Shown piece after piece: positions 1 to 605 of a DNA stretch of 5,089 bases (its first letter is position 1; the number at the start of each line of letters is the position of its first letter). The notes below the pieces were generated by a model. That model worked only from the letters and a program-made list of their open reading frames with translations. It made no database searches and had not been told where the DNA came from. This stretch comes from a virus (Duplodnaviria; Heunggongvirae; Uroviricota; Caudoviricetes): IMG/VR virus record IMGVR_UViG_2534682001_000016. One strand, 5' to 3'. The position numbers were made by a program, and so were the translations under genes.

Positions 1-121
1 CAATCTTTGGGGCAATGGAACAAATTGCCGCCCACTGTGAGTCATATTCATCCTGACTTTCCAGAACCATACGAATCGCCCGCTGACGGACTTCGGGGGA
101 AAAACGAGTATTTTTAGTCAT
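1..121 (-). CDS. IS3-family transposase OrfA (helix-turn-helix N-terminal part), 5' partial in window: start codon at 119-121 on the minus strand, continues beyond position 1
   Basis: Minus-strand translation from the ATG (complement of 119-121) gives [40 protein letters not shown], 40 codons. This matches the remembered N-terminus of IS629/IS1203-type OrfA. A purine-rich AGAGG lies a few nt upstream on the minus strand. Not in the supplied ORF track because it is under the length cutoff and truncated. Confidence 0.85.
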
Positions 122-175
122 CCTGTTTACCTCTTTCTCAGGGAGTTTAGTCTCCAGGATTTCCGGGGCGGTTCA
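1..175 (-). mobile_element. Terminal portion of an IS3-family insertion sequence (IS629/IS1203-like), truncated by the window edge; element terminus at about position 175
   Basis: Seen in sequence: the reverse complement of 121-175 reads TGAACCGCCCCGGAAATCCTGGAGACTAAACTCCCTGAGAAAGAGGTAAACAGG followed by ATG. It begins with the 5'-TG characteristic of IS3-family ends and leads straight into an OrfA-type transposase N-terminus. Established knowledge (from memory, not searched): IS629-type elements end in TGAACCGCCCCGG and encode OrfA starting [15 protein letters not shown]. The exact boundary (175) is inferred from the TG terminus. Confidence 0.8.
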
Positions 176-178
176 TTT

Positions 179-202
179 GCCCCGGTTATCCGGGGCTTTT
201 TT
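179..202 (+). terminator. Putative intrinsic (rho-independent) terminator-like hairpin: GCCCCGG / TTAT loop / CCGGGGC followed by TTTTTT
   Basis: Seen in sequence: perfect 7-bp GC-rich inverted repeat at 179-185 and 190-196 with a 4-nt loop, followed immediately by six T at 197-202 on the + strand. Function is inferred from the structure only. Confidence 0.5.
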
Positions 203-215
203 GCAGGTGGAGAAC

Positions 216-605
216 ATGATGTTTCTGAAACAGGGCACGTTTAATTATGAAAAGCAGTCCGTGGTGCTCAGTGAGCTGTCCGGGCTGCAGAGAATTGAAT
301 ATCTGGCGTTTGTTCAGCAGCGAACGGCAAAGTTTGATGCCGAAGAGGGAGAACTGCCGGAGGCTGAACGACAGATTGCTTTTCTGCGGATGGGGATGGA
401 TATCAATGCTTGGCTGGTTTCCCGCTCACTGTGGAATGCGGAACAGTCTCAGGATGTTGAGACGCTTTGCGCATCCGTTATTACAACATGGTCGTATGAT
501 GCCCTGGGAGCGGGGGCGGAGATGGTTCTGTCGCTGAGCGGTATGGGAGCCATTGAGAATGCCGGGGATTTGGAGCATGAGGTGCTGACGCCGGAAAAGT
601 CCTGA
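216..605 (+). CDS. G: Tail assembly chaperone, lambda gpG homolog
   Basis: ORF-track frame 177-605, which opens on TTG; the first ATGs are the tandem pair at 216 and 219. A Shine-Dalgarno-like AGGTGGAG sits at 205-212, so 219 has the better spacing and 216 is the longest ATG start. Product begins MMFLKQGTFNYEKQSVVLSELSGLQRIEYLAF, resembling lambda gpG (which starts MFLK). Stop TGA at 603-605. Position immediately upstream of a T-frame ORF and the tape measure gene matches the conserved G/GT/H arrangement. Confidence 0.88.
   Translation: MMFLKQGTFNYEKQSVVLSELSGLQRIEYLAFVQQRTAKFDAEEGELPEAERQIAFLRMGMDINAWLVSRSLWNAEQSQDVETLCASVITTWSYDALGAGAEMVLSLSGMGAIENAGDLEHEVLTPEKS

Follow-up and report, generated by a model that had tools for sequence, protein, structure and literature searches.

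A G+C-rich stem-loop with a run of T residues directly after it (positions 179-202) lies between an insertion sequence (IS) and the tail gene G in the prophage analyzed here. This element is probably a resident intrinsic terminator-type stem-loop of mEp460/cdtI/Ayreon-type prophages that punctuates the late operon between genes V and G and is read through by Q-modified RNA polymerase; on the same reading, an IS inserted beside it, and the motif that the IS end shares with the stem is coincidental.

Location of the hairpin

The window (the whole 5,089-nt stretch of DNA that we analyzed) is contained at 100% identity in the chromosome of E. coli PA11 (NZ_CP145942.1). The part from position 176 rightward belongs to a lambdoid prophage and is its tail module (G, T, the tape-measure gene H, M, and L). 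The features relevant to the hairpin are as follows.

1-175, minus strand: IRL (left) end of IS629/IS1203, IS3 family, based on the PA11 annotation and comparison with the empty site
121-119, minus strand: start codon of the IS orfA
about 151-175: terminal inverted repeat of the IS; the minus strand reads TGAACCGCCCCGGAAATCCTGGAGA
163-171, plus strand: IS-internal CCGGGGCGG, within the terminal repeat and able to pair with 177-185 in rightward transcripts
176-178: 3-bp target-site duplication TTT, based on both junctions compared with the empty site
179-196, plus strand: phage-borne hairpin GCCCCGG-TTAT-CCGGGGC, based on folding and identical in uninterrupted relatives
197-202, plus strand: T6 tract directly 3' of the stem, the U-tract of the putative terminator
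206-212, plus strand: GGTGGAG, read from the sequence as a putative Shine-Dalgarno-like site for G
219-605, plus strand: tail assembly chaperone gene G, with ATG at 219 in the RefSeq annotation
614-943: gene T, in the -1 frame relative to G

The Ayreon annotation puts the start of G one codon earlier, at 216, and the GGTGGAG begins 4 nt past the T-run. The short gap between G (219-605) and T (614-943), with T in the -1 frame, is the layout expected for the G/G-T programmed frameshift, which is conserved in lambdoid tail chaperones.

Boundary of the IS

In the PA11 genome, the region to the left is annotated as "IS3-like element IS1203 family transposase"; IS1203 is an isoform of IS629. The other IS junction in PA11 passes from ...TCATTT into TGAACCGCCCCGGG, and the window-side junction passes from ...CCGGGGCGGTTCA into TTTGCCCC. 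Reduced to the bases at the break, the left junction is ...tcaTTT followed by TGAACC and the right junction is GGTTCA followed by TTTgcccc, whereas the empty site reads ...tcaTTTgcccc. Based on these two junctions and the empty site, the IS copy occupies positions 4866-6175 of the PA11 locus (L004), a length of 1310 bp. Its last base is window position 175, and the TTT duplication (176-178) abuts the first base of the stem. The transposase genes of this copy face away from G.

With IS629/IS1203 of the IS3 family, the PA11 copy shares the length of 1310 bp, the terminal TGAACCGCCCCGG...CA, the 3-bp duplication, and the orfA/orfB arrangement with programmed frameshift; we saw no unusual features in it. 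Rump et al. 2011 (PMC3271280) described IS629 duplications of 3-4 bp. The insertion is strain-specific, as the window's IS-phage junction occurs in one of 5426 complete genomes, that of PA11.

The hairpin is present where the IS is not. Phage Ayreon (MF807953) is 100% identical to the window over 176-900, and mEp460 and E. coli FORC_044 are near-identical. In all three, the order is the V stop codon TAA, 20 nt, the hairpin, T6, 13-16 nt, and the G start; the V-G gap that contains the hairpin is 57 nt. The hairpin reads GCCCCGGTTATCCGGGGC in Ayreon and FORC_044 and TTATTCGGGGC, one base off, in mEp460. Using a 400-bp probe centered on the hairpin, we found the V-G junction uninterrupted in 1835 of the 1838 E. 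coli records that hold it, and the identical hairpin stands at empty sites in Ayreon, FORC_044, and >1800 other E. coli records. This comparison with uninterrupted V-G regions establishes that the hairpin pre-dates the IS, in line with one of the three readings offered in the original prediction, a pre-existing phage terminator; the hairpin and its T-run (179-202) are a resident phage feature and not a part of the IS.

The converse suggestion, that the hairpin is a component of the IS and the true boundary lies near 196, has only the shared CCGGGGC motif in its favor and is untenable: the hairpin lies outside the terminal inverted repeats, it occurs without the IS in the phages and genomes just listed, and the other end of the PA11 copy starts with TGAACCGCCCCGG right after TTT, which gives 1310 bp and a 3-bp duplication.

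Structure of the hairpin

The motif CCGGGGC occurs at exactly three sites in the window: 163-169 (plus strand), 179-185 (minus strand; GCCCCGG on the plus strand), and 190-196 (plus strand). The original prediction had the two hairpin arms exactly right but placed the IS copy at 164-170, one base off. When the whole window was dinucleotide-shuffled 200 times, 11 of the shuffles had at least three matches to the motif (mean 0.79), and the count by itself is only mildly unusual.

Folding recovered the perfect 7-bp stem, TTAT loop, and T6 tail that had been read from the letters, with 7 G:C pairs at 179-196 and T6 at 197-202. As RNA, the hairpin at 179-196 has a minimum free energy (MFE) of -16.2 kcal/mol, accounts for 0.99 of the ensemble, and has a z score of -3.3; none of 200 shuffles folded as well. 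Of the terminator-like sites in the window, this one is top-ranked, and no other has 7 G:C pairs. Intrinsic terminators have a G+C-rich stem of about 5-14 bp and a loop of 3-8 nt, and here these are 7 bp and 4 nt. A U-rich tract lies directly 3' of the stem on the transcribed strand (T6, 197-202), and in the uninterrupted relatives the stem begins 20 nt past the V stop codon on the same strand as the late genes. On the minus strand, the hairpin has no T-run downstream of it, so it is directional, for rightward transcription.

A search of positions 1-1000 against Rfam returned no family at its gathering score; the best match was MicA, with 28.1 bits against a threshold of 41. The T-run is the common end point of the sub-threshold matches (99-203), which are to MicA and three Burkholderia sRNA families and reflect a generic likeness to sRNA terminator hairpins, not family membership.

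Late-operon context

Two GenBank phage records already annotate the element as a terminator: MF807953 (Ayreon, 8742-8782) and JQ182728 (mEp460, 8751-8774). The Ayreon sequence is identical to that of the window, and the mEp460 sequence differs by one base (C190T, giving a G.U pair). The window copy differs from both in being abutted by IS629, and the two annotations are computational predictions. In mEp460, a second "rho-independent terminator" is annotated inside T, upstream of the tape-measure gene (L002 2142-2159, equivalent to about 817-834 in the window); our simple terminator scan of the window flagged no plus-strand site at about 817-834. The literature that we found on terminators after major tail genes of lambdoid phages held general statements and nothing on this element; a paper on SPP1 (PMC6316719) is one source of such general statements.

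In 8.7 kb of the uninterrupted prophage of FORC_044 (L003), the two clearest plus-strand terminator-like sites were a post-capsid site and the V-G site, and each lies in the intergenic gap behind the gene for one of the two most abundant virion proteins (capsid and V). The post-capsid site consists of GGCCCGTAAGGGCT followed by T7, 24 nt past the prohead protease/capsid fusion gene (L003 1587-1600), and a further hairpin, CAGCCCCTGAACGGGGCTG, lies 19 nt beyond it (L003 1619-1637). Ayreon also annotates the GGCCCGTAAGGGCT post-capsid hairpin as a terminator. Its record lists plus-strand terminators after capsid, V, I, J, and lom, and it also has a terminator behind the gene for antitermination protein Q, the customary layout of late control in lambdoid phages.

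Ayreon is an isolated phage (recorded host, E. coli K-12) that carries the exact V-G sequence. Because the hairpin in this phage lies upstream of essential tail genes, polymerase must pass it. The original prediction had held that, if the hairpin terminates, the tail genes depend on antitermination or on an unseen promoter. The first of these fits a viable phage that has both the exact hairpin and an annotated Q gene. As to the second, we found no promoter-like sites between the hairpin and G, where there is no room for a promoter. We also dropped an outward-facing IS promoter as a source of G transcripts: the G-facing end is IRL, beside orfA, and positions 1-400 contain no plus-strand promoter-like site.

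In lambda, tR' and the terminators downstream of it in the late operon are read through by Q-modified RNA polymerase. The V-G element resembles these lambdoid late-operon terminators in its G+C-rich stem, short loop, and immediate T-run, and the phage whose operon contains it encodes an annotated Q antiterminator. Lambda itself, however, has no V-G hairpin (its gap is 15 nt), and termination and Q read-through at the window site are predicted.

From the sequence features, the genomic context, and general knowledge of lambdoid late transcription, we infer termination between V and G, read-through under Q, and an effect on the ratio of V to G. The V-G hairpin would be one of several that punctuate the phage late operon after the genes of the most abundant virion proteins. 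Polymerase that lacks the Q modification would stop or pause there, which would keep stray transcription from the tail genes in the lysogen and, with the stem, would give V-containing mRNA a stable, protected 3' end. Polymerase that started at the late promoter and carried the Q modification would read through into G, T, H, M, L, and the genes beyond. Overall, V message would then exceed G/T/H message. Insulation of G from unmodified polymerase arriving from the left, which was among the original suggestions, is a plausible candidate role.

Conservation across relatives

We found no V-G hairpin in lambda, phi80, mEp043, a Stx2a phage, CP-1639, PhiR12_2, a Klebsiella phage, or an Enterobacter phage, in which the gaps are 10-20 nt. 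The hairpin is therefore dispensable for the V-G gene order in general, because lambda, phi80, mEp043, the Stx phages, and others manage without it.

Among the 80 closest IMG/VR loci, the G protein is 99-100% identical; a scan of genome contigs with a two-sequence G alignment returned 8 loci. The E. coli, Salmonella Gifsy-1, and Citrobacter groups share 54-57% G protein identity. Salmonella Gifsy-1 and 53 other IMG/VR contigs of the same type have GCCCCGGTTCCGGGGC and then TTCTATGG at the site, and the Citrobacter group has GCCCCG(G/A)(C/T)TCCGGGGC and then TTTG or TTGG. In an alignment of 13 representatives of the three lineages, the GCCCCG and CGGGGC arms are invariant, whereas the loop, flanks, and T-tract vary. 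After the stem, the E. coli relatives have T5-T7, the Gifsy-1 group has TTCTAT, and the Citrobacter group has TTTG/TTGG; the last two are weak as U-tracts. A hand-coded score of the d'Aubenton-Carafa type was 55 for the E. coli version versus 10-17 for the Gifsy-1 and Citrobacter versions. Together with the E. coli T5-T7 versions, the homologues in Gifsy-1 (L206) and Citrobacter-type contigs (L221, L276-L281) make up a strong-to-weak T-tract series on one conserved stem.

Within the E. coli group, C190T (mEp460) and loss of C196 give G.U pairs in plus-strand RNA; G185A, C190G, and C191A fall within the two loop-adjacent pairs, and there is also one loop change. No compensatory double change was seen, and the six core pairs, invariant in the 13 representatives, carry no signal on pairing. 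Because the stem core never varies, there is no covariation support for RNA pairing over DNA conservation. The support that the relatives offer is instead a contrast in conservation, between the stem and its neighboring bases, across three host genera.

Possible roles in termination and mRNA stability

Stem-loops after highly expressed genes include intercistronic stabilizer hairpins, such as the REP/BIME elements in malE-malF, and terminators that follow genes for major structural proteins (T7 T-phi, for example). The V-G element is likewise a stable stem-loop after a high-output gene and before low-output genes. Unlike REP/BIME elements, however, it does not have a REP sequence, is single-copy in the phage, and has a canonical T-run in the E. 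coli lineage. We rejected a REP-like unit, as the Ayreon genome (44.7 kb) has a single copy of the 18-nt hairpin. Across E. coli genomes, the copy number of the hairpin probe tracks the prophage (median, one place per genome).

A different division of labor is possible, although we think it unlikely: the conserved role of the stem-loop might be intercistronic mRNA stability, through a block to 3'-to-5' exonucleases after downstream cleavage, rather than termination, and the T-run would be secondary. V-containing message would then outlive G/T/H message, as it does with REP and other intercistronic hairpins. The weak T-tracts in Salmonella (TTCTAT) and Citrobacter (TTTGCG) point in this direction, as they imply that the conserved function may be other than termination. 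Also consistent with a stabilizing role are the invariance of the stem core in three lineages beside a variable T-tract, the drop in the hand-coded terminator score from 55 to 10-17 in the Gifsy-1 and Citrobacter versions, and the position after the gene of the most abundant tail protein, with a comparable hairpin after the capsid gene. The E. coli version nevertheless has all the sequence features of a canonical intrinsic terminator, including the immediate T-run. Termination and RNA stabilization are not mutually exclusive roles.

That the hairpin is a functionless chance palindrome in a non-coding gap is very improbable: many lambdoid phages do lack it, but no shuffled sequence folded as well, the stem is invariant in the E. 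coli, Salmonella, and Citrobacter versions while nearby intergenic bases diverge, and similar hairpins follow other late genes.

Insertion of IS629 beside the hairpin

The original prediction had raised both the possibility that the hairpin served as the insertion target and the possibility that the shared motif is coincidental. We compared the flanks of other IS629 copies, using exact-match IMG/VR scans for each IS629 end; these yielded distinct flanks from other insertions, 113 at IRL and 145 at IRR. Windows 150-1500 nt away served as controls, and hairpins were scored within 45 nt of the IS end. Neither class of hairpin was enriched: terminator-like hairpins occurred in 2.7% of IRL and 3.4% of IRR flanks (controls, 4.3% and 3.3%), and G+C-rich hairpins in 3.5% and 6.9% (controls, 6.5% and 5.6%). 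Flanks and controls did not differ in the folding energy of their first 30 nt (p = 0.28 for IRL, 0.99 for IRR). Words of at least 7 bases common to the flank and the IS end were present in 2.7% of the 113 IRL flanks versus 3.9% of controls, and none of the 113 other IRL flanks had an 8-mer in common with the IS end. With no enrichment of hairpins or shared words in 258 other distinct flanks, the proposal of the hairpin as a target is not supported, and the shared motif is best seen as coincidence.

In a slightly larger set of the census (114 IRL and 146 IRR flanks), we observed a weak symmetric bias of the form 5'-C-N-(3-bp duplication)-N-G-3'. G occurs at outward position 5 in 53% of IRL and 55% of IRR flanks and is depleted at position 4 (10-12%). 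The bias went undetected in an earlier survey of 21-47 sites (PMC3271280). The PA11 site fits it on the V side only.

At the PA11 site, the 8-mer TCCGGGGC occurs both in the IS end and in the flank, within 30 nt of the junction. Only 0.6% of control windows had such a match, which makes chance a slightly strained account of the 8-mer at this single site. The target TCATTTGCCCCGG and the IS terminus TGAACCGCCCCGG match in register at 9 of 13 positions, including the 7-bp core. Guided insertion, in which the transposase took TCATTTGCCCCGG as a mimic of TGAACCGCCCCGG or recognized the palindrome, could account for this match, for the exact 8-nt word, and for the position of the IS flush with the base of the stem. 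IS911 transposase without OrfA reportedly inserts beside end-like sequences, a result attributed to Loot et al. in 2002. Some IS3-family members also target palindromic units, namely IS1397 and ISKpn1, which target REP units (PMC1525189). The PA11 insertion resembles theirs in family and in its position beside a palindrome, but their transposases prefer the REP family, whereas IS629 has no hairpin preference across the 258 flanks and inserted outside the stem.

We nonetheless regard guided insertion as improbable. In addition to the absence from the other flanks of any enrichment of hairpins, terminators, or words of at least 7 bases, and of any 8-mer among the 113 IRL flanks, 1835 of the 1838 records have an intact V-G junction, although 4016 of 5426 genomes contain IS629-type ends. 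The geometry is unlike that of a circle-junction surrogate end, as 3 bp, not 9, separate the core from the IS tip. The half-fit to the weak C-N-(duplication)-N-G pattern is enough for an ordinary insertion, and Rump et al. 2011 (PMC3271280), who compared 25-bp flanks, saw no target pattern for IS629. We dropped the V-G gap as a candidate IS hot spot, given that at most 3 of the 1838 junctions are interrupted. The adjacency of the IS to the hairpin and the motif that they share are most likely coincidence.

Predicted effect of the insertion on PA11 transcripts

The IS end can pair with the central arm, as originally noted, and this pairing is predicted to be the stronger one. In the MFE fold of 155-205 (-25.6 kcal/mol), 163-171 (CCGGGGCGG) pairs with 177-185 (UUGCCCCGG) and 157-160 pairs with 188-191; the 163-171/177-185 helix is 9 bp long, including two G.U pairs. 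We estimated the probability of the terminator stem by equilibrium folding of transcripts with their 3' end at the T-run; it was about 1.0 in the uninterrupted context and 0.52, 0, 0, and 0.29 with 20, 40, 80, and 150 nt of the IS upstream, respectively. The probability is lower because CCGGGGCGG of the IS end pairs with UUGCCCCGG. In RNA made rightward across the IS, the IS-end copy would take the 5' arm, and the terminator stem would tend not to form; these folding models thus predict an antiterminator-like competition in PA11 transcripts.

It is conceivable, but quite unlikely, that the 8-nt identity is the trace of a rare end-mimic (surrogate end) insertion and that the junction is a built-in antiterminator, in which CCGGGGCGG of the IS end sequesters the 5' arm of the V-G terminator. 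If so, the PA11 tail genes would escape the polar effect expected from an IS beside a terminator.

Implications

For a resident hairpin with a chance IS neighbor, the consequences are chiefly ones of annotation, beyond which the result matters little. Position 175 is fixed as the IS629 boundary, with TTT duplicated, the suggested targeting of such hairpins by IS629 is removed, and the hairpin takes its place as a resident, annotated terminator-type element in the late operon of mEp460/cdtI/Gifsy-1-type tail modules. The conserved stem and variable T-tract in E. coli, Salmonella, and Citrobacter prophages make up a natural series for setting termination against RNA stabilization.
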